NCBI GenBank assembly: GCA_012514635.1
Contig: JAAYZX010000007.1
Coordinates: 23,735 to 87,734 of the forward strand
Length of the DNA: 64,000 nucleotides
Direction: 5' to 3'
Source: Actinomycetota bacterium
GTDB taxonomy: Bacteria > Actinomycetota > Thermoleophilia > RBG-16-64-13
Shown: positions 8,268-63,012 of the stretch, piece after piece
How positions within the stretch are numbered: the stretch's first letter is position 1
How the letters are laid out: every line of letters begins with the position of its first letter
Notes under the pieces: model-generated
Database searches by the model: none
Seen by the model: only the letters and a program-made list of their open reading frames with translations
Told to the model about the DNA's origin: nothing
Position numbers and translations under genes: made by a program

Positions 8268-9473
8268 GTGTATAGAAGCGATGTCCCGGGTTACGTTGTT
8301 TTGGAGGACGGTACGGCCTTTCTGGGCTTCGGTTTTGGGGCCGTGGGGAAGGCCTTCGGTGAGATGGTTTTCAACACCGGGATGACCGGGTATCAGGAGA
8401 TGGTGACCGATCCTTCCTATCACGGGCAGATAATTACGTTCACCTATCCCATGATCGGCAACCACGGGGTGGGACGGTGGCTCATGGAATCCAGCGGTCC
8501 TAAAGTCGGAGCTGTTGTGGTACGCGAGGCCAAGAACACCAACTACGATCGCACCTGCCCCGAGGCTTGGATAGACTGGCTCTCTGCCAACGGTGTAGTG
8601 GGCGTGGGAGGTGTCGACACTAGGGCGCTGGTCGGGCGTGTTCGCAGACTGGGCGCCATGACTGCGTGCGTAGCTGCCGGCCACGAGTTCAGCGTAAACA
8701 AGCTTCTCGAGGAGACACGTGGTTTCCCGGGTCTATCAGGGCGTGATCTTGTCCAGGATCTTACCTGCTCGGCACCGTATGAAGCTCAGGCTGAGGAGCT
8801 GTTCCCCGACGGCCCTCCCCCGGATTTGGATGGGCGTCGGTACCACGTGGTGGCTTTCGACTACGGCATCAAATACTCCATCCTGCGACGGCTGTTGGCG
8901 GCGGGCTGCCGTGTGACCGTAGTACCTGCCGGATACACGGCGGATGCCGTGCTTGCCCTGAAACCTCAGGGTATTCTGCTTTCCAATGGACCGGGTGACC
9001 CGGCCCCTTTAACATATGCCGTGCACGTCATTCGCAACCTTGTAGGAGTCGTTCCTATCTTTGGGATAGGTCTGGGTCATCAACTGCTTTCTCTGGCCGT
9101 TGGATTAGGAACCTTCAAGTTAAAAGCAGGGCATCGAGGTTTGAACCATCCCGTTAAGAATTACCCTAGAGACTCCATCGAAATCACCAGCCAGAACCAC
9201 GGTTTTGCGGTGGAGCCACCGCCCGTAGTGGCTCAGGTTCTTGCGCGAGACGGTGATCTTTCGGCCATTCCCGCTGAGGTTCTGTGGATGGATTCCGCTT
9301 ATGGTCCGGTACGGGTGACGCACCTCAGCCTGAATGACGGCACGGTAGAGGGATTGGAGTTGCCCGACGTTGCCGTCTTGAGTGTACAGAACCAGCCCGA
9401 GGCCGGACCCGGGCCTCATGATGGTCTCTATATGTTTCAGCGCTTCATTGAACTGATGGAACGGGGCGTGTAG
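8268..9473 (+). CDS. carA: Carbamoyl-phosphate synthase small (glutaminase) subunit
   Basis: N-terminal CPSase small-chain domain (GMTGYQE). Class I GATase catalytic triad context (GIGLGHQLL). GTG start with GGAGTAGGG RBS. Confidence 0.9.
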   Translation: MYRSDVPGYVVLEDGTAFLGFGFGAVGKAFGEMVFNTGMTGYQEMVTDPSYHGQIITFTYPMIGNHGVGRWLMESSGPKVGAVVVREAKNTNYDRTCPEAWIDWLSANGVVGVGGVDTRALVGRVRRLGAMTACVAAGHEFSVNKLLEETRGFPGLSGRDLVQDLTCSAPYEAQAEELFPDGPPPDLDGRRYHVVAFDYGIKYSILRRLLAAGCRVTVVPAGYTADAVLALKPQGILLSNGPGDPAPLTYAVHVIRNLVGVVPIFGIGLGHQLLSLAVGLGTFKLKAGHRGLNHPVKNYPRDSIEITSQNHGFAVEPPPVVAQVLARDGDLSAIPAEVLWMDSAYGPVRVTHLSLNDGTVEGLELPDVAVLSVQNQPEAGPGPHDGLYMFQRFIELMERGV

Positions 9474-9517
9474 AGGGTGGGGCGGCACGAATCCGTGATT
9501 AATTTGCGAGGAGTGAC

Positions 9518-9979
9518 ATGATCCACGTGGGAGAGAAGGCGCCGCTGTTCAAAGCGGAGGGCACGACAGGAATGATTGATCTGGGGGAGATGTTGGAGAG
9601 TGGACCGGTTGTCCTCTACTTCTTCCCAAAGGCCAACACCCCCGGCTGAACCATCGAAGCGGTTGAGTTCAACCGTCTATTGGACGATTTCGCAGAGCTG
9701 GGCGTGCGGGTGATCGGGATGTCTGTTGATTCGTTGAAAACACAGCAGAATTTTGCAGCCAAGCATGATCTGCGCTTCCCGTTGATAGGGGATAAAGAAC
9801 GGGTGGTGAGCGCCCGATACTTGGTGCTGAAATCTCCAACAGGGAGCACGGAGCGCGACACTGTGGTGATCGGACGCGACGGGATTGTGGTATTGGCTTA
9901 TCAACAAGTCAAGGCGGCGGGTCATGCGGCCCGCGTTCTGCAGGATGTGAAGGCTGCGCGCGCGGCCGGACGGCTGTAG
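9518..9979 (+). CDS. Selenocysteine-containing peroxiredoxin (Bcp/PrxQ-type AhpC/TSA family). In-frame TGA at 9647-9649 replaces the peroxidatic Cys.
   Basis: GAGGAG RBS 4 nt before the ATG at 9518. Translation gives ...[20 protein letters not shown].... This is the universal Prx motif P-x3-T-x2-C with the Cys codon as TGA. The same frame continues into the track ORF 9680..9979. A SECIS-like hairpin lies 10 nt downstream of the TGA. Confidence 0.7.
9660..9675 (+). promoter_or_regulatory. Candidate bacterial SECIS stem-loop (CGGTTG-AGTT-CAACCG; GU in the apical loop) starting 10 nt 3' of the UGA
   Basis: Inverted repeat seen directly. Spacing and loop GU resemble the fdhF-type bacterial SECIS. 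Confidence 0.45.
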
Positions 9980-9992
9980 CCGTCCGGCCGCG
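9961..9992 (+). terminator. Perfect 14-bp-stem hairpin (CGCGGCCGGACGGC-TGTA-GCCGTCCGGCCGCG) whose loop contains the Prx stop codon
   Basis: Exact inverted repeat. No clear U-tract follows, so this is a stabiliser or pause element rather than a classic terminator. Confidence 0.4.
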
Positions 9993-15028: not shown

Positions 15029-15147
15029 TGTTCTCGAGTCTGGGGGCGCGGCGGCCCTTGGGTCAGAATGCCCGTGTCGTCTGGGAAGAAGAGCCACGGG
15101 CTGTGCCGGCCGGGAAGTGAGAAGTCGGCGGGTGGAAGGTGGACGCA

Positions 15148-16686
15148 ATGGCGCTGCGTGATCAGCTGGAACTGGGTCCTCGGGAAGTGATTTGTCTCGT
15201 GGGCGGGGGAGGCAAGAGCACATTCATGGAGGCTCTTGCCCGAGACTATGAAAGAAGCCACGCCGGCGTACTCATCACTACTACCACGAAAATCTTCCCA
15301 CCTTTGGCGAACAGACGTGGTGAGGCGCAGCAAGAAGAGGAGGACTGGGCGGGCGTGCAGGGCCGCCCAAACGCGCAAAGCTCGACGAATGCGGAGGCTT
15401 CGATCGGAGCGGAGACTTCGGTGAGTGTGGAGTGTTGGCCGGGCTTGCGTCCTCTCGTGCTGGGGGAGAGCGTAGCTGCGCTGCGGAGGGCCCTGGGAGA
15501 GGGAAGTGATGGGTCCACAACTTCGGTCTCCACTGTTGGGGACACGTGGGAACCTTCTCCGGTGGTGGGCACCGCAGTGCTCTCCTCAGGCAAACTAGAC
15601 GGCGTGCCGGTGGAATGGGTGCCCAAACTGCGCGACCTGCCGGGTGTGGAGGCGGTCCTGATCGAGGCGGATGGAGCGGCTCGGCTTCCGCTCAAGGCTC
15701 CGGCGTCGTACGAACCCGTTATTCCTTCTTGCGCAACGCTGGTGATCGCGCTGTGTGGACTTGACGCTCAGTGGACGCCGCTCGATGACGAACACGTGCA
15801 CCGTGCGGCCCTTCTGGCAGAGCTTCTGGGCCTACCTGCTGGAGTATCTGTGCCGCCGGAAGCGTTGTTGCCGGCGTTGATCTTGGGGTATCAGAACGCG
15901 GTCCCAGAGCATGCCAGACTGGTCGCCTTCTTCAACAAAGCGGACGCTCATCCGCCCGACCAGGTGCTGGTAGAGTTGGCACGTTGTGCGCCGGTGGATG
16001 TCTGGATGGGCGCCGCGCATCCGGACACCGGGCCTTTGTTTGAGTGTGTCCGGCATATCCCGCGGCGGCCTGTGGCCGTCGTGCTGGCGGCGGGCCTCAG
16101 CCGGCGCATGAGAGGTCGCGCCAAGGTTACGTTGGAGCTGGATGGAGTCAGCTTGGTAGGCCTGGCGGTACGTGCGGCTCTGGACGGAGGAGCACAGCCT
16201 CCGGTACAGGTGGTGGCCGGGCAGGAATATGACGCCATTCGGGAAGCACTGGAGCGTGACGTTCCCATGGGCCGTCATGGTTGCGACCGCTGGAGGATTA
16301 TCCGTAACCATCAGCCTGAACGGGGTATCGGTAGCTCGTTGGCCCTGGCGGCGAAGCAGGCTCGAGGTCGCGATTTGCTGGTGTTGCTGGCAGACCAACC
16401 TTTCGTGCGCGGTACAACGGTGAAGCGGCTGTTGGATGCTTGGGAGCGGGAAACCACAGCGGCGGCTGCAGTGCTGGAGGATTTGGCGGGAGTTTGGGGA
16501 CCGCCCGTGGTGATAAACCGCTCTCTACTACCGCAGGTCCTTGCCCTCACCGGCGATGAAGGAGCGCGTACGGTGCTTGAGGAATTCGACGCGCGTCTGG
16601 TGCGGGTACCGGCACAGGGGGCGGAGCGGCACGACGTGGATTCTGACAAAGACTTAGGCCACGCGGAGAGATTGAGTCGGCTTTAA
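15148..16686 (+). CDS. Fusion protein with an N-terminal YqeC-family (selenium-dependent hydroxylase accessory) domain and a C-terminal MobA-like NTP-transferase domain (MocA/YgfJ-like)
   Basis: N-terminus VICLVGGGGKSTFM is a P-loop-like motif typical of YqeC (TIGR03172). C-terminal 200 aa VAVVLAAGLSRRM...LLVLLADQPFV is the MobA/MocA nucleotidyltransferase signature. GGAAGGTGG RBS before the ATG at 15148. Confidence 0.55.
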   Translation: MALRDQLELGPREVICLVGGGGKSTFMEALARDYERSHAGVLITTTTKIFPPLANRRGEAQQEEEDWAGVQGRPNAQSSTNAEASIGAETSVSVECWPGLRPLVLGESVAALRRALGEGSDGSTTSVSTVGDTWEPSPVVGTAVLSSGKLDGVPVEWVPKLRDLPGVEAVLIEADGAARLPLKAPASYEPVIPSCATLVIALCGLDAQWTPLDDEHVHRAALLAELLGLPAGVSVPPEALLPALILGYQNAVPEHARLVAFFNKADAHPPDQVLVELARCAPVDVWMGAAHPDTGPLFECVRHIPRRPVAVVLAAGLSRRMRGRAKVTLELDGVSLVGLAVRAALDGGAQPPVQVVAGQEYDAIREALERDVPMGRHGCDRWRIIRNHQPERGIGSSLALAAKQARGRDLLVLLADQPFVRGTTVKRLLDAWERETTAAAAVLEDLAGVWGPPVVINRSLLPQVLALTGDEGARTVLEEFDARLVRVPAQGAERHDVDSDKDLGHAERLSRL

Positions 16687-22080: not shown

Positions 22081-23385
22081 ATGAACGAGATCTGGAACCC
22101 GGAATACGAAACCATGACACGCAAAGATTTGCGCACGCTGCAGGAAAAGCGTTTGCAGATGACGCTGCGTTGGGCGCACTCTTCTGTGCCTTTCTATCGA
22201 CAGCGGTGGGAAGAAAGCGGCATCAACGTGCGAGACATCAAGACTCTGGATGACGTGACACGTCTGCCGTTCACTACCAAAGCCGACTTCAGACGAGCCT
22301 ACCCTTACGGCATGTTCGCGGTACCGCTGGAAAGGGTCATTCGCATTCATACGTCATCGGGTAGTCCTTCTTCTCCCACCGTGGTGGGGTTCACACGCGG
22401 GGATCTCAATACCTGGGCCGAGCTGTGCGCCCGCGCCGGCACGGCCGGCGGGGCGCGCTCGCACGATGTGGTACAGATCACTTTCGGTTACGGTCTGCAG
22501 ACGGGGGCGTTGGGATGGCACGCCGGATTGGAGCGCCTAGGGGCCACCGTTATCCCCACGTCCACTGGTGCAACCAAGCGCCAGTTGATGATCATGCGCG
22601 ATTATCACACCAGCGTTCTGGCCGGATCGCCTTTCTATGGACTTCATCTGTGCTACGTGGCTGACGAACTCGGGATCCGCCCACCGGACCTTAATCTGCG
22701 CATAGCTCTTCTCGGGGGAGAGCCTTGGAGCGAAGCTATCCGCCGCGAGATACAAGAGCGCCTGGGAGTCCAGGCACGTGATACGTATGGAGTGTCGGAG
22801 GTGCTGGGACCCGGTTTGTCCTTTGAGTGCCCGGCGGAAGATGGGCTACACGTCAACGAGGATCACGTGTTGGTGGAAGTGGTGGATCCAAAGAGCGGTG
22901 TGCTGCTTGCGGAGGGAGAGGAAGGTGAGCTGGTGTTCACATCACTCACCAAGGAAGCCGTGCCGGTTATCCGTTACCGCACGGGTGATCTGGCTGCAAT
23001 TACCACGCAACGCTGTGCGTGCGGTCGTACACTGGTGCGCCATACCCGTGTACAACGTCGCTGTGACGACATGCTCAAAGTGAGGGGTGTCAACGTGTTC
23101 CCGGCACAGGTGGAGAACGTCCTGGCCGCTGCGATGGGAGTGCCACCGCGATTCCAGATCCTTCTTGAAACCGAAGCCGGTTTGGATCAGATGGAGGTAC
23201 TTGTGCCCATGGACCCGGCGCTCTTCACAGACGATATACGGGATTTTGTAGACCTGCGACGGGAGCTGGAAGAGCGGCTGGCCGATGAGTTGGCCGTTAG
23301 GGTCCGCGTGAGATTCGTGGAGCCCACCGTTTTTACCACAGTCGACGAACTGCCGGCACGGGTGGTCGATAAACGACGCAGATAA
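22081..23385 (+). CDS. paaK: Phenylacetate-CoA ligase family (PaaK-like aryl-acetate/aryl-acid:CoA ligase)
   Basis: N-terminal LQEKRLQ...VPFYRQ, AMP-binding TSSGSPSSPT, about 434 aa, typical of PaaK. Confidence 0.8.
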   Translation: MNEIWNPEYETMTRKDLRTLQEKRLQMTLRWAHSSVPFYRQRWEESGINVRDIKTLDDVTRLPFTTKADFRRAYPYGMFAVPLERVIRIHTSSGSPSSPTVVGFTRGDLNTWAELCARAGTAGGARSHDVVQITFGYGLQTGALGWHAGLERLGATVIPTSTGATKRQLMIMRDYHTSVLAGSPFYGLHLCYVADELGIRPPDLNLRIALLGGEPWSEAIRREIQERLGVQARDTYGVSEVLGPGLSFECPAEDGLHVNEDHVLVEVVDPKSGVLLAEGEEGELVFTSLTKEAVPVIRYRTGDLAAITTQRCACGRTLVRHTRVQRRCDDMLKVRGVNVFPAQVENVLAAAMGVPPRFQILLETEAGLDQMEVLVPMDPALFTDDIRDFVDLRRELEERLADELAVRVRVRFVEPTVFTTVDELPARVVDKRRR

Positions 23386-27472: not shown

Positions 27473-28609
27473 ATGAGTTTGGATTGGTTGCCACGCGACA
27501 ATGAGATCAAAGACCATCGGCTGTTCAAGGGCGAGGAATATTGGGGCACGGAAGCTCCCTGCACCATGTTCGAAAAGAAGCCTTTGGTGGACCCGGACGG
27601 CAACGAGATTCCCGGTCTCTACACGGCTTGGATCACTCTCAACAACCCTGCACAGTACAACTCGTACACCACTGAGATGGTTAAAGGTGTAATCGCCGGT
27701 TTCTGGAACGCCTCCACCGCCCGCGATGTGGTTGCGGTGGTTTTCACCGGAGCGGGCAAAGCCGCCTTCTGCACCGGCGGCAACACCGTAGAGTATTCCG
27801 AGTACTACTCGCGTAGGCCCAAGGAATACCAAGATTACATGGAACTGTTCAACGGGATGGTGGACTCCATTCTGGCCTGCAAAAAACCCGTCATCTGCCG
27901 GGTCAACGGCATGCGGATTGCCGGTGGGCAGGAAATCGGTATGGCTGCCGACCTTGCAGTAGCTGCAGATACTGCCGTGTTCGGTCAGGCCGGCCCGCGC
28001 CACGGCTCCGCCGCCGTTGGTGGTGCTACCGACTTCCTCTGCGAGTTTCTCTCCATCGAAGACGCCATTTGGAGCGGCTTCATGTGCGAGATGTGGTCGG
28101 CCTACAAGATGCGGGTCAAGAACCTCATCACCAAAGCAGTCCCGGTCCTCAAGAAGGACGGCGAATTCATTCGCAATCCGCTGGTCATCACCGACAGCTA
28201 TGTCAAAGACGGCGAGATCGTCTACGGTGAGATGAAGGCCGGCGCTGAGGCGAAGGCTGCGCGCGAACTCATGGCTTCCTGCGAATACGATTACTCGGCT
28301 CTGGATGCCGAAGTAAATAGGATCATCTGGCAGATCGCCAACCTATTCGAGGGCAACGTACAGATGTCGCTCGACTCCATGCGCATGAAGAAGCGCTTTT
28401 TCTGGGATCAGTCCAAGGTGCTTATGCGCCAGTGGCTGGGACAGAACATGATGCTCGACGCCTTCCTGGGCTTCCACGCGTTCAGCACGCGCAAGCTCAC
28501 CGGCAAGGACACCATCGACTTTATCAAGTACCGTCAGTTGGTGGCCGAAGGCAGGCTCATGGAACTCGATGCGCTCGAGGAAATCATGCCGAAGCCACTG
28601 CAGAAGTAA
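27473..28609 (+). CDS. Large crotonase-superfamily (enoyl-CoA hydratase/isomerase) protein. Possibly a BamA/Oah-like ring-hydrolysing 6-oxocyclohex-1-ene-1-carbonyl-CoA hydrolase.
   Basis: Crotonase core VVFTGAGKAAFCTGGN ... VNGMRIAGGQEIGMAAD. The 378-aa length with a long C-terminal extension matches Oah/BamA-type members rather than 260-aa hydratases. The BamA assignment is inference. Confidence 0.7.
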   Translation: MSLDWLPRDNEIKDHRLFKGEEYWGTEAPCTMFEKKPLVDPDGNEIPGLYTAWITLNNPAQYNSYTTEMVKGVIAGFWNASTARDVVAVVFTGAGKAAFCTGGNTVEYSEYYSRRPKEYQDYMELFNGMVDSILACKKPVICRVNGMRIAGGQEIGMAADLAVAADTAVFGQAGPRHGSAAVGGATDFLCEFLSIEDAIWSGFMCEMWSAYKMRVKNLITKAVPVLKKDGEFIRNPLVITDSYVKDGEIVYGEMKAGAEAKAARELMASCEYDYSALDAEVNRIIWQIANLFEGNVQMSLDSMRMKKRFFWDQSKVLMRQWLGQNMMLDAFLGFHAFSTRKLTGKDTIDFIKYRQLVAEGRLMELDALEEIMPKPLQK

Positions 28610-33812: not shown

Positions 33813-33822
33813 GAGGATCAGG

Positions 33823-34721
33823 ATGACGTCTCAAGAGTTGTACAAGAAGATGGCGGAGTTATCCACTGAAGGGAAGGCGTTTGTCCTGGCCACGGTCGTG
33901 GAGTCATTTGGGTCCACTCCTCGGAAGGCCGGCGCCAAGATGTTGGTGCTTGAGGATGGATCCACTATCGACACGGTAGGCGGAGGCAAGGTCGAGCAGC
34001 AGGTGGTGCTGGACGCGCTGGACGCTCTTCAACGCGGTGTGTCGCGGACTGTAAAATATGAGCTGCGCACATCGGGTGAGCATGCGCTGGCATGGAATGT
34101 GGCGGGGAGACCACTGTATTCCTGGAGGTGAACAAACCGGCGCTGACCATTGTGGTCGCCGGTGCGGGGCACATAGCCCAGAAGCTCACACCTATGGCCA
34201 AGCTGCTGGATTTTCGGGTGGTAGTGGTGGACACGCGGCCCGAGTTTGCAAACACCGACAATCTTCCGGATGCCGATGAGGTTATCTGTGGTCACCCGGG
34301 CGAACTGCCGGACCTTGTCTCCTTGGATCACAACTCGTATGTGGTGATCGTCACCCACGGCCACATCCACGATAAGGATGCGCTGAAAGCCGTGCTCTCT
34401 TCCGATGTTGCCTACGTGGGAATGATCGGCAGTCAGCATAAGGTACGTGTTGTGCTGGAACAACTGCTTGACGAGGGCGCCGATATGGAACGTCTCAGTC
34501 GGGTCTATTCACCTATTGGAATAGATCTGGGCGGTGGTGCTCCTGGAGAGATCGCCGTAAGTATCCTGTCGGAGATCGTCGCAATGCAGCATGGACGCCT
34601 TGACCGCTTCCGTGTACGTCGTAATCCGCTGGTGGAAACTGCAGTGTCGCTCAGCTCCGCTTCCGGCGCGACTATGGGTACGGATGCGGTGGGAGGTGGT
34701 CGATCGCAGTGTTGCTCTTAG
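33823..34721 (+). pseudogene. xdhC: XdhC/CoxI-family Mo-hydroxylase maturation factor, split by an apparent frameshift at about 34080-34091 (N-terminal XdhC_CoxI domain in one frame, C-terminal Rossmann XdhC_C domain in the -1 frame)
   Basis: Frame 1 gives ...GSTPRKAGAKMLV...KYELRTSGE then stops at 34131. Frame 3 opens at 34080 with ACAGMECGGETTVFLEV..., the conserved XdhC CGGE motif, and runs to 34721. No RBS precedes the internal ATG at 34092. GGAGGA RBS precedes the ATG at 33823. Confidence 0.55.
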
Positions 34722-34787
34722 GCCGTGGATGATCAGCAGGTGGCCTGGAGGGTCTTTTGTTCTCATCTATAGAAGAGGGCGGAGATT

Positions 34788-35603
34788 ATGACTGTGAAAA
34801 AACCGTTGGCTCTGGTGAAGGGGGCAGGCGATCTGGCCACGGGAGTCTCGTTACGTTTGCACCGGGCGGGTTTTTCGGTTGTGATGACTGAGATCGCTTC
34901 ACCTACGCCTGTTCGGCGCACGGTGGCGTTCGCGGAAGCCGTATACAACGGAAAAGTATTGGTCGAAGGTGTTGAGGCGGTTTTGGCCGGAAACGAAGAG
35001 GATGTGCTGGACATCCTGTCCGGCGGAAAGCTGCCCGTCTTGGTGGATCCAGAGGCCGCCTGTCGTGCGTGGCTGGATCCGGACCTGTTGGTCGACGCCA
35101 TTATCGCGAAGCGTAATCTGGGGACGTCGCCTGCCGATGCCCCAGCAGTGGTTGCCCTGGGGCCGGGGTTTGTCGCCGGCCGAGATTGCCATGCAGTGAT
35201 TGAGACTATGCGGGGCCACACGCTGGGTCGCGTTATATGGGAAGGTGAGGCTATTCCCAACACCGGCGTGCCCGGTGAAGTTGGAGGCAAGGCTGCCGAA
35301 CGAGTTCTTCGTGCCCCCGGGGCGGGAATATTCAAAGCGCATGCAGAGATTGGAGATATGGTGACGAGCGGGCAGGTCGTCGGCTACGTCGACGACCTGC
35401 CGCTGACATCGTCCATCGATGGTGTCCTGCGCGGCCTTCTTCGCTCGGGCCTGGAGGTCTCTCCGGGATTCAAGACCGGGGACGTGGATCCGCGGGCGGC
35501 GCGAGAGCACTGTTTCACGGTATCGGACAAGGCCTTAGCTATTGGCGGTGGAGTCTTGGAAGCGGCGTGTGCCCTGCTGGGAGGTGTGAGGTTTCAGCGA
35601 TAG
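34788..35603 (+). CDS. XdhC-related Rossmann-fold protein, candidate YqeB-family selenium-dependent molybdenum hydroxylase system protein
   Basis: 271 aa. Dinucleotide-binding-like N-terminus LVKGAGDLATGVSLRL. Immediately downstream of xdhC. The YqeB (TIGR03309-like) assignment is from recall of family description and context, not an alignment. Confidence 0.4.
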   Translation: MTVKKPLALVKGAGDLATGVSLRLHRAGFSVVMTEIASPTPVRRTVAFAEAVYNGKVLVEGVEAVLAGNEEDVLDILSGGKLPVLVDPEAACRAWLDPDLLVDAIIAKRNLGTSPADAPAVVALGPGFVAGRDCHAVIETMRGHTLGRVIWEGEAIPNTGVPGEVGGKAAERVLRAPGAGIFKAHAEIGDMVTSGQVVGYVDDLPLTSSIDGVLRGLLRSGLEVSPGFKTGDVDPRAAREHCFTVSDKALAIGGGVLEAACALLGGVRFQR

Positions 35604-61577: not shown

Positions 61578-61684
61578 GATGAGATAGTTGCTGGGGGAGC
61601 GCTTGGCGCTGAGAGTGTGGTTCGGCCACTGACCCCGCGAACCTGATCTGGGTAATGCCAGCGAAGGGAAGCGAATGGGAAGCT
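61578..61684 (+). ncRNA. TPP (THI-box) riboswitch
   Basis: CUGGGGGAGCGC...GCUGAGAG...GACCC...GAACCUGAUCUGGGUAAUGCCAGCGAAGGGAA matches the conserved TPP aptamer core. A TATAAT lies at 61534-61539. A thiamine ABC operon follows. Confidence 0.75.
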
Positions 61685-61691
61685 CCAGAAG

Positions 61692-61723: not shown

Positions 61724-61902
61724 CAGCGTCCCTTCCCAATTGGTCTACTCGGGCACGAGGATTCAAGGGAGGCGGATTTTGGAGGCAGTTGTAGTGGCCG
61801 CCTCCGCTTTGGTCATGTTGGCGCCGCTACTTCTCTGGCCACGTCCTCTGGCGAAAGAGTCGCTCAGATCCAATGAACAAGCAAAGCACAAAGGGGGCAG
61901 GA

Positions 61903-63012
61903 ATGAGTAGGCAACCTTCAAGACGCACTCTTCCTTCGGCGTCGCCGATGGTTGCGACTTTGCTGGCGGTGGTCCTGCTTGCTGCGGGTTGCGGCGGCGG
62001 CGGGGGGGTGGCAACTTCGAGTGCCTCCGCGGAAAAGAGCGGCGAGGTGGTGCTGATGACGCATGACTCCTTCGCGCTGCCCGACACCGTCATGGCTGCA
62101 TTCCGACAGGAAACGGGCTTGGAACTGCGGGTGCTGAAATCCGGTGACGCCGGCTCGATGCTGAACCAAGCCATTCTCACCAAAGATAATCCGATGGCGG
62201 ATGTAATATTCGGTGTGGACAACACCTTTCTCTCTCGAGCGCTGGACGAGGACATCTTCTCCGTGTATGTGTCCGGCTCCCTGGCCGACGTGCCCGACGA
62301 ATTCGAGCTCGATCCGGAGCATCGGGTAACGCCTGTTGACTACGGCGACGTTTGTCTGAACTATGACAAAGAAGTGATCGGTACCGTAGATCTCCCTCTC
62401 CCGGCGACCCTCGCAGACCTCACCCGACCGGAGTATAAGGGGTTGTTGGTCGTTCAGAATCCGGCCACTTCGTCTCCTGGCCTGGCCTTCCTGCTTGCCA
62501 CGATCGCCGAATTCGGGGAGAGCGGGGACTACCCCTGGCAGCAGTTCTGGCGGGACCTGATGGCAAACGATGTCCTGGTGGTATCCGGCTGGGAGGAAGC
62601 CTACTACTCCGAGTTTTCGGGCGGAGCCGGTGAAGGAGACCGGCCGCTGGTGGTCTCGTATGCCTCTTCGCCTCCGGCTGAAGCAATCTTCGCGGAAACG
62701 CCGCTCACGGAGGCCTCCACCGGCGTTGTTCCTGCGGGTGCCTTTCGCCATATCGAGTTTGCCGCCATCCTCAAGGGAGCGCGCAATCCCTCTGGGGCTG
62801 AGAAACTGATCGACTTCATGTTGAGCATCTCTTTCCAGGAGGCAATTCCGGAAAGTATGTTCGTCTTCCCCGTGAACCAGAACGCTGAGCTGCCGGACAC
62901 ATTTACTAGGTTTACAACTATCCCCGATAACCCGGTGAAGATGGACTACGAATCCATAGGGCATAATCGGGAGCGGTGGATTCGGGAGTGGACCGAAATC
63001 GCAATCGGCTGA
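61903..63012 (+). CDS. thiB: Thiamine ABC transporter substrate-binding lipoprotein
   Basis: Lipobox LLAAGC plus Gly-rich linker. ThiB/TbpA-family similarity. AAGGGGG RBS before the ATG at 61903 (the track ORF start at 61873 has no RBS). Confidence 0.8.
   Translation: MSRQPSRRTLPSASPMVATLLAVVLLAAGCGGGGGVATSSASAEKSGEVVLMTHDSFALPDTVMAAFRQETGLELRVLKSGDAGSMLNQAILTKDNPMADVIFGVDNTFLSRALDEDIFSVYVSGSLADVPDEFELDPEHRVTPVDYGDVCLNYDKEVIGTVDLPLPATLADLTRPEYKGLLVVQNPATSSPGLAFLLATIAEFGESGDYPWQQFWRDLMANDVLVVSGWEEAYYSEFSGGAGEGDRPLVVSYASSPPAEAIFAETPLTEASTGVVPAGAFRHIEFAAILKGARNPSGAEKLIDFMLSISFQEAIPESMFVFPVNQNAELPDTFTRFTTIPDNPVKMDYESIGHNRERWIREWTEIAIG

Follow-up and report, generated by a model that had tools for sequence, protein, structure and literature searches.

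A stretch of 64,000 nucleotides from the genome of an Actinomycetota bacterium of the class Thermoleophilia (contig JAAYZX010000007.1 of assembly GCA_012514635.1, hereafter the window) very probably holds a genuine selenoprotein gene: its frame at positions 9518-9979 is best read as a peroxiredoxin (Prx) of the BCP/PrxQ type with selenocysteine (Sec, U) as the peroxidatic residue. All coordinates are those of the window, and the window features described here lie on its forward strand. The complete coding sequence comprises 153 codons, counting the predicted Sec at codon 44 (U44), and is closed by a TAG at 9977-9979. The ATG (9518-9520) follows four bases after a Shine-Dalgarno-like GAGGAG (9508-9513), as read from the sequence, and translation reveals a single internal stop, the TGA of codon 44 (9647-9649). 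Mechanical calling of open reading frames (ORFs) breaks the gene into an N-terminal piece of 43 amino acids (9518-9649) and a C-terminal piece of 99 (9680-9979), and the public annotation of the locus consists of the 99-residue piece (GenBank NLE73211.1); that is, the gene is cut short in the databases. The same sequence, TGA included, recurs in L083, a short metagenome contig of this organism in ENA. The original prediction for this DNA had proposed an ATG at 9518 behind a GAGGAG ribosome-binding site, a peroxiredoxin-like frame unbroken to 9979 save for one TGA, a stop codon at the site of the peroxidatic cysteine, and a gene that automated callers would split or shorten, and each of these proposals has held up.

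The identity of the protein is supported along its whole length. With a cysteine put at codon 44 for the domain search, the translation matches the Pfam family AhpC-TSA (PF00578) at 106.7 bits against a cutoff of 26 (E=9.9e-31), and this match covers residues 4-125, so that the domain runs straight through the TGA. Comparison with the sequences of solved structures by phmmer returned full-length matches to 5enu (E=3.4e-26) and to the Xanthomonas BCP entries 3gkk and 5iiz (about 1e-24), the top nine PDB matches being either BCP proteins or the BCP-like AhpC/TSA entry 5enu. An alignment to Bcp/PrxQ proteins had been suggested as a check on the gene, and in it U44 falls exactly on the peroxidatic cysteine of the solved BCP/PrxQ structures, that is, on the last residue of their PKDNTPGC motif; the corresponding motif of the window protein is P37-K-A-N-T41-P-G-U44 (PxxxTxxU, 9626-9649). 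The conserved active-site arginine of peroxiredoxins is likewise present as R113 (codon at 9854-9856), within a TERDTVVI segment aligned with the arginine of GIERSTFLI in 5enu. The active-site set of P37, T41, U44 and R113 is thus there, with motif and arginine both aligning with 5enu.

Within the peroxiredoxins, the top NCBIfam matches of the window protein are PrxQ and Bcp, and the equivalog cutoffs of both are missed (75.8 versus 260 bits for Deinococcus PrxQ, NF053650; 73.8 versus 140 bits for E. coli Bcp, PRK09437), which places the protein in a divergent BCP-like clade and not among the equivalogs of Bcp or PrxQ. The equivalog cutoff of PrxU (NF040737) is also missed, with 37 against 270 bits. 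The translation of 153 residues does not contain a single cysteine, and the resolving cysteine that atypical 2-Cys BCP and PrxQ proteins carry at position +5 from the peroxidatic cysteine (CP+5) or in helix alpha-3 is found nowhere in it. On its sequence, the window protein is of the 1-Cys, here 1-Sec, type, and within the known Sec-Prx family it is best regarded as a divergent, BCP-like member.

The strongest evidence on the TGA comes from its distribution among relatives. Scanning a collection with one genome per species yielded 80 loci, hence 81 genes with that of the window; the equivalent of codon 44 is TGA in 49 of these 81 and TGC or TGT in the other 32, proportions that are not unbiased because the loci were ascertained partly through conserved peptide patterns (YFFPKANT and others). 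A second, independent collection of metagenomes contributed 51 TGA loci and 28 Cys loci. All six Actinomycetota relatives from the genome collection (L001-L006; Thermoleophilia, Gaiellales and unclassified metagenome-assembled genomes, at 48-71% identity) have TGA at this codon, as do the metagenome relatives L089-L093 and L095-L099. The closest of the latter (L089, L090-L092, L093 and L098, at 82-83% identity) are also split by the callers, into a 43-residue ORF and one of 88-91 residues. Counted as distinct sequences, TGA is present in all 10 other relatives of the Thermoleophilia/Gaiellales type that were found (48-83% identity) and, beyond them, at the homologous codon of about 90 Acidobacteriota loci. 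In terms of taxonomy, the carriers of TGA among the genome loci comprise the Actinomycetota clade, one Candidatus Cybelea locus (L039) and many Acidobacteriota (Terriglobia, Candidatus Acidiferrales and Bryobacteraceae), and the Cys forms include Thermoplasmata, Thermotogae, Sphingomonadales and some Terriglobia.

Two further aspects of this comparison bear on the nature of the gene. There is a full-length Cys form (P0002/L088, with TGC) that is 63% identical to the window protein, and its existence provides the Sec/Cys pairing that is the defining mark of genuine selenoproteins. Moreover, identity to L001-L006 ranges from 38 to 77% over residues 1-43 and from 47 to 70% over residues 45-153; the part encoded ahead of the TGA is therefore as conserved as the part behind it, and both halves are under the same protein-level selection.

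Downstream of the UGA lies a predicted bacterial SECIS (selenocysteine insertion sequence; bSECIS) hairpin at 9659-9676. A 6-bp stem with an AGUU loop, starting 10 nt past the UGA, had been claimed for this place and is borne out: the core CGGUUG/CAACCG pairs 9660-9665 with 9670-9675 around the loop at 9666-9669. A closing G9659-U9676 wobble extends it to 7 bp (GCGGUUG with CAACCGU, 9659-9665/9670-9676), and in this form the hairpin begins 9 nt past the UGA. The bacterial SECIS geometry attributed to it in the original prediction also stands, since the element stays within each of the four limits that the bSECIS model sets (review PMC13188914). This model describes a loop of 3-9 nt on a stem of 4-16 bp, a G within the first two loop positions that is usually followed by G or U, a UGA-to-loop distance of 16-37 nt, and a minimum free energy of -7.5 kcal/mol or lower; in the window, a stem of 7 bp carries a 4-nt loop whose second base is G and whose third is U, the distance is 16 nt and the energy -9.5 kcal/mol. 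This energy is that of the 27-nt stretch 9656-9682 (z=-3.77), and none of 200 dinucleotide shuffles was as stable. A search of Rfam, at the gathering thresholds or with E up to 10, gave no SECIS family and only chance-level matches in 9500-9800; Rfam evidently lacks a model for this element.

Comparison across the homologues ties the hairpin to the TGA. All Sec genes have a hairpin 9-10 nt past the UGA, with a median of -10.2 kcal/mol, and the Cys homologues, of similar G+C content, have a median of -3.55 kcal/mol (Mann-Whitney p=2e-12, for sequences that are not independent); the metagenome set replicates the difference, with -10.2 for Sec against -4.5 kcal/mol for Cys forms. Within the clade of the window gene, EAIEFNQ is encoded by GAGGCUAUCGAGUUCAACCAG in the Cys form L088, where no hairpin remains (-1.0 kcal/mol, z=+1.36), whereas the Sec forms L089 and L090 retain GCGGUUGAGUUCAACCGC, with -11.2 and -12.2 kcal/mol. 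The stems themselves differ between clades: the Thermoleophilia stem is GCGGUUG/CAACCGC, and those of Acidobacteriota are GCGUCCGA/UCG-C-GACGC, GCCGGCG/CGCCGG and GCCGUCC/GG-G-AUGGC, with three pairs showing double changes. Pairing is nevertheless kept at about 90% across these differing stems, a value that drops to 14-55% if the 3' arm is shifted along. The register of the stem shifts from clade to clade, in the position of the bulge and in a loop of 3-7 nt, which weakens column covariation as a test, and more weight was therefore given to the energies and to synonymous sites. At the latter, the seven Thermoleophilia-type genes share 83% of synonymous codons over codons 47-53 versus 50.5% in the rest of the gene, a comparison whose members are not independent, and the GUU valine codon is kept among them. 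Taken together, the hairpin data form the usual computational hallmark of a SECIS that functions.

The synonymous-site analysis also brought up a second region, ahead of the UGA. Codons 36-42 (FFPKANT, 9623-9643) have a synonymous identity of 0.76, compared with about 0.5 for the whole gene. This could reflect an RNA-level or decoding-context constraint on the 5' side of the UGA.

Several other explanations of an in-frame TGA have to be weighed. The gene could be an ordinary Cys-peroxiredoxin in which TGC or TGT has become TGA, either as a nonsense change in a pseudogene or as an assembly or sequencing error, and in fact a single-base change from TGC would be enough and the public annotation does treat the gene as truncated, at 99 residues. 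However, the TGA is common to the relatives of the clade, which come from many independent samples and assemblies, and to the Acidobacteriota loci; the metagenome contig repeats the sequence without a difference; the 43 codons upstream are as conserved as the downstream part; and the hairpin co-varies with the presence of TGA. With TGA conserved in relatives and TGC or TGT at the same place in other homologues, a pseudogene or a sequencing error is effectively ruled out, and we regard it as extremely improbable. Even less credit, practically none, can be given to the idea that UGA encodes an amino acid (Trp or Gly) throughout this genome, as it does in Mycoplasma or Gracilibacteria. Nothing but the in-frame TGA itself speaks for such a reassignment; against it, TGA is the commonest terminator of the window, ending 26 of its 57 likely genes, so that an alternative genetic code does not apply, the G+C content is about 60%, and no other convincing TGA-interrupted gene appears among the frames listed.

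Two products could also arise from the locus, a 43-residue peptide and an independently started protein of 99 residues. A TTG start does exist at 9680 and gene callers choose it, but the resulting protein would have none of the active site and would be missing the first half of the thioredoxin fold, and the Pfam domain is continuous over the TGA. In addition, the downstream starts picked by the callers vary among relatives, giving products of 88, 91, 93 and 133 amino acids, as is expected of a calling artefact, and separate products are accordingly hard to believe in, about as hard as a pseudogene. Somewhat more room, albeit little, is left for a read-through of the UGA in which a near-cognate or suppressor tRNA would insert Cys or Trp while the hairpin slows termination, with no Sec pathway involved. 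In support of this scenario, none of the Sec machinery lies within the 64-kb window. It has to contend with a hairpin that fits a SelB-type bSECIS, with the apical-loop G-U at the right spacing, and with a protein family known for its selenoproteins; furthermore, the genome contains YqeB and YqeC, which imply SelD, and SelA, SelB and SelD appear in relatives of the same class according to a published supplement (see below). On balance, we consider such read-through distinctly unlikely.

Some observations do weigh against the interpretation of 9518-9979 as a selenoprotein gene. In a 71-nt context the fold of the hairpin region is ordinary (z=-0.06), and when synonymous codons of the same peptide are shuffled, 8-21% of the sequences fold equally well (p=0.21 with weighted and 0.08 with uniform codon choice), the peptide EAVEFNR being one that itself predisposes the RNA to pairing. 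The single-sequence fold tests are thus mixed, and the significance of the hairpin comes from the comparison with relatives. There, the relatedness of the homologues inflates the statistical tests, the loci compared owe their discovery in part to a peptide pattern, and column covariation within Thermoleophilia amounts to one compensatory pair (G-C to C-G, in L006) among seven sequences. Lastly, neither selA, selB or selD nor a gene for tRNA-Sec is present in the window or in the flanks of about 160 related loci, a result that says nothing of the remaining genome. ARAGORN detected no tRNA gene in the 64-kb window and none of relevance in 48 Sec loci, Rfam detected no tRNA-Sec in the window, and tblastn with the E. 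coli SelA, SelB and SelD proteins, run against the window and the related loci, returned only GTPase look-alikes, the SelB-like match of L040 being LepA.

The window does contain genes of selenium metabolism. A YqeC-MocA fusion of 515 residues is encoded at 15139-16686 (TIGR03172, 119.7 bits for a cutoff of 73), its residues 312-505 corresponding to a MocA/PucB-like molybdenum cofactor cytidylyltransferase. It lies about 5.2-5.5 kb downstream of the Sec-Prx gene, past a carboxylesterase and an adenine deaminase, and YqeC homologues occur at a similar distance in L001 and L002. YqeB follows at 34788-35603 (TIGR03309, 368 bits for a cutoff of 220), about 25 kb from the Sec-Prx gene. According to PMC5029168, YqeB and YqeC together are the accepted signature of the SelD-dependent trait of selenium-cofactor use, and the presence of both in the window implies SelD, if indirectly. 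Judged from these profile matches, the pair marks a selenium-dependent molybdenum hydroxylase system. As for cultured members of the class, the supplement of PMC5029168 has six trait columns, and Solirubrobacter soli, Solirubrobacter sp. URHD0082, Patulibacter americanus and Conexibacter woesei Iso977N score positive in the first three, which, from the order in the text of that paper, are taken to be SelD, SelA and SelB; the supplement also credits each of these organisms with 1-2 selenoproteins.

Next to these genes, an XdhC-like maturation factor ahead of YqeB (33822-35603 for the two) is split over two overlapping frames, with an N-terminal piece at about 33822-34130 in one and a C-terminal piece at 34092-34721 in another. 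Either a 1-nt frameshift or an assembly error near 34085-34092 causes the split, or the two ORFs overlap naturally. An apparent stop inside the YqeB homologue was also considered; it proved to be a TAG that separates two genes and not a recoded TGA. Further selenoprotein genes were sought in the window, and the plausible TGA-interrupted frames among those listed were adjacent genes in the same frame, in a scan that is noisy for DNA with 60% G+C.

What the sequences show is the open frame, the place of the UGA in it, the conservation of the UGA and its flanks, the active-site residues, and a SECIS geometry that goes with the Sec forms. From the established bacterial mechanism and from peroxiredoxin chemistry we infer Sec insertion, its dependence on SelB, the nature of the reductant and any catalytic benefit of selenium. 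On arrival of codon 44 in the ribosomal A site, the UGA would be met with the insertion of Sec and not with termination, the hairpin at 9659-9676 acting as a SECIS that recruits SelB with Sec-tRNA(Sec) to the ribosome. In the finished protein, the selenolate of U44, placed in the site formed by P37, T41 and R113, would attack a hydroperoxide and become a selenenic acid. As the protein has no cysteine, and hence no internal resolving cysteine, the oxidised selenium would have to be reduced by an external thiol partner, for example thioredoxin or a glutaredoxin-like reductant, in a cycle of the 1-Cys type (a "1-Sec" cycle).

Regarding evolution, the window protein falls, in a quick neighbour-joining tree, within a Sec clade of Thermoleophilia and Gaiellales, apart from the Acidobacteriota Sec clades, and Cys forms are interspersed in the latter; the protein is short and the sample biased, and the tree is not relied on. 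The pattern hints at several conversions between Sec and Cys. In L023 (Candidatus Acidiferrales), the Prx gene at about 8155 is a Cys form (TGC) that the quick tree nests among Sec forms, and it still has a SECIS-like hairpin (-9.1 kcal/mol) and a Sec-type peptide, TNEASEFRD; it looks like a recent replacement of Sec by Cys. Some Sec forms of Terriglobales and other Acidobacteriota (L040, L047, L048, L057, L071 and L074) contain a cysteine at U+5, in a U-[ST]-[IV]-E-A-C motif, which is the position of the resolving cysteine in BCP of the E. coli type. Since the Thermoleophilia forms contain no cysteine at all, there are two mechanistic types among the Sec forms, and those of Terriglobales with the U+5 cysteine could form an internal selenenylsulfide, by analogy with the disulfide between peroxidatic and resolving cysteines in E. 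coli-type BCPs. It is also conceivable, though rather doubtful, that Thermoleophilia and Gaiellales represent a separate clade of Cys-free 1-Sec BCP, which would have arisen from a Cys-to-Sec conversion of its own, independent of that in Acidobacteriota, and would combine a minimal SECIS of the shortest spacing with an external reductant; with the YqeC and YqeB genes not far off, its expression might then be linked to how the cell manages selenium.

The immediate surroundings of the gene differ between relatives. In the window, the Prx gene is preceded by carA, for the small subunit of carbamoyl-phosphate synthase (8268-9473), with no carB next to it, whereas in the closest metagenome relatives L088-L092 it stands after a DUF3467 gene and before a photolyase, so that its direct neighbourhood has not been conserved. 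The 3' end of the gene overlaps a G+C-rich hairpin of 14 bp with a UGUA loop (9961-9992, -39.6 kcal/mol, z=-6.65), which spans the stop codon, the TAG falling in the loop and the 3' arm. This hairpin is possibly a transcription terminator or an mRNA-stabilising 3' stem, and it was not reported by a scan for consensus terminators, because no U-tract (T run) follows it.

Elsewhere in the window there is a thiamine pyrophosphate (TPP) riboswitch at 61583-61686 (Rfam RF00059, 76.3 bits), and downstream of it an ORF of 379 residues (61873-63012) whose product, by its sequence, resembles solute-binding proteins of the lipoprotein type and presumably binds thiamine. A gene for 6-oxocyclohex-1-ene-1-carbonyl-CoA hydratase (27473-28609; TIGR03200, 519 bits, above the cutoff) and a phenylacetate-CoA ligase-like gene (22081-23385) are markers of the anaerobic degradation of aromatic compounds through benzoyl-CoA, which agrees with an anaerobic way of life. 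The isolate names of at least two close relatives (L001 and L002) suggest anaerobic reactors.

The main value of the gene is in annotation; what is known of selenocysteine decoding or of peroxiredoxins is not changed by it. It and its relatives are deposited as "peroxiredoxin" fragments of 88-133 residues without an active site (e.g., NLE73211.1 and NLT35094.1), and as a consequence both antioxidant capacity and selenium dependence are under-counted in anaerobic Thermoleophilia and Gaiellales and in many soil Acidobacteriota. The family also offers a clean natural experiment, in which Sec and Cys forms of one small enzyme can be compared and the SECIS hairpin is present with Sec and gone with Cys. 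Such a data set could be used for training predictors of selenoproteins and SECIS elements, or for comparing the catalysis of 1-Sec and 1-Cys BCPs.

As a kind of object, a Sec-peroxiredoxin is not new, since the family is long established. Its published entry reads "Peroxiredoxin (Prx), PF00578, TxxU", and the experimental proof comes from Eubacterium acidaminophilum; a survey of 2006 counted 12 Sec-Prx members with five inferred conversions from Cys to Sec, the Sargasso Sea data contained 43 Sec-Prx genes, under COG1225, and a survey of 5200 genomes found 91 Sec-Prx proteins in 78 organisms. In our literature search, no report naming the selenoproteins of Thermoleophilia or Gaiellales and no paper tying BCP by name to selenocysteine were found, and the placement in Thermoleophilia may thus be unreported. 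The window protein resembles the Sec-Prx family of the Kryukov, Zhang and Gladyshev surveys in its PF00578 domain, in the PxxxTxxU motif with U in place of the peroxidatic cysteine, in the widespread occurrence of Cys homologues and in a SECIS located just downstream, inside the coding sequence; it differs in that its clade has no cysteine anywhere in the protein. With the experimentally verified PrxU of E. acidaminophilum (NF040737) it shares a UGA-encoded Sec at the peroxidatic position, but PrxU is a different subfamily, with a profile of 233 positions compared to the 153 residues of the window protein.

The hairpin, for its part, has in common with the bSECIS consensus (bSECISearch; E. coli fdhF-type) a stem-loop inside the ORF, on the 3' side of the UGA, with a small apical loop containing G-U. 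It departs from this consensus in being very compact, its 16-nt spacing being the minimum allowed, and in lacking, as a Thermoleophilia form, the bulged U; the Acidobacteriota hairpins have a bulged C or U on the 3' arm and a shifted register. Finally, the Cys-type BCP/PrxQ proteins (E. coli Bcp, PRK09437; Xanthomonas campestris, 3GKK and 5IIZ; Burkholderia, 5ENU) are of the same length and fold class as the window protein and share with it the conserved active-site Pro, Thr and Arg, with full-length E values of 3e-26 to 1e-24. The window protein is set apart from them by a PKANT motif instead of the usual PKDNT, by the lack of a resolving cysteine at CP+5 or elsewhere, and by what would be a selenocysteine in the place of their peroxidatic cysteine.

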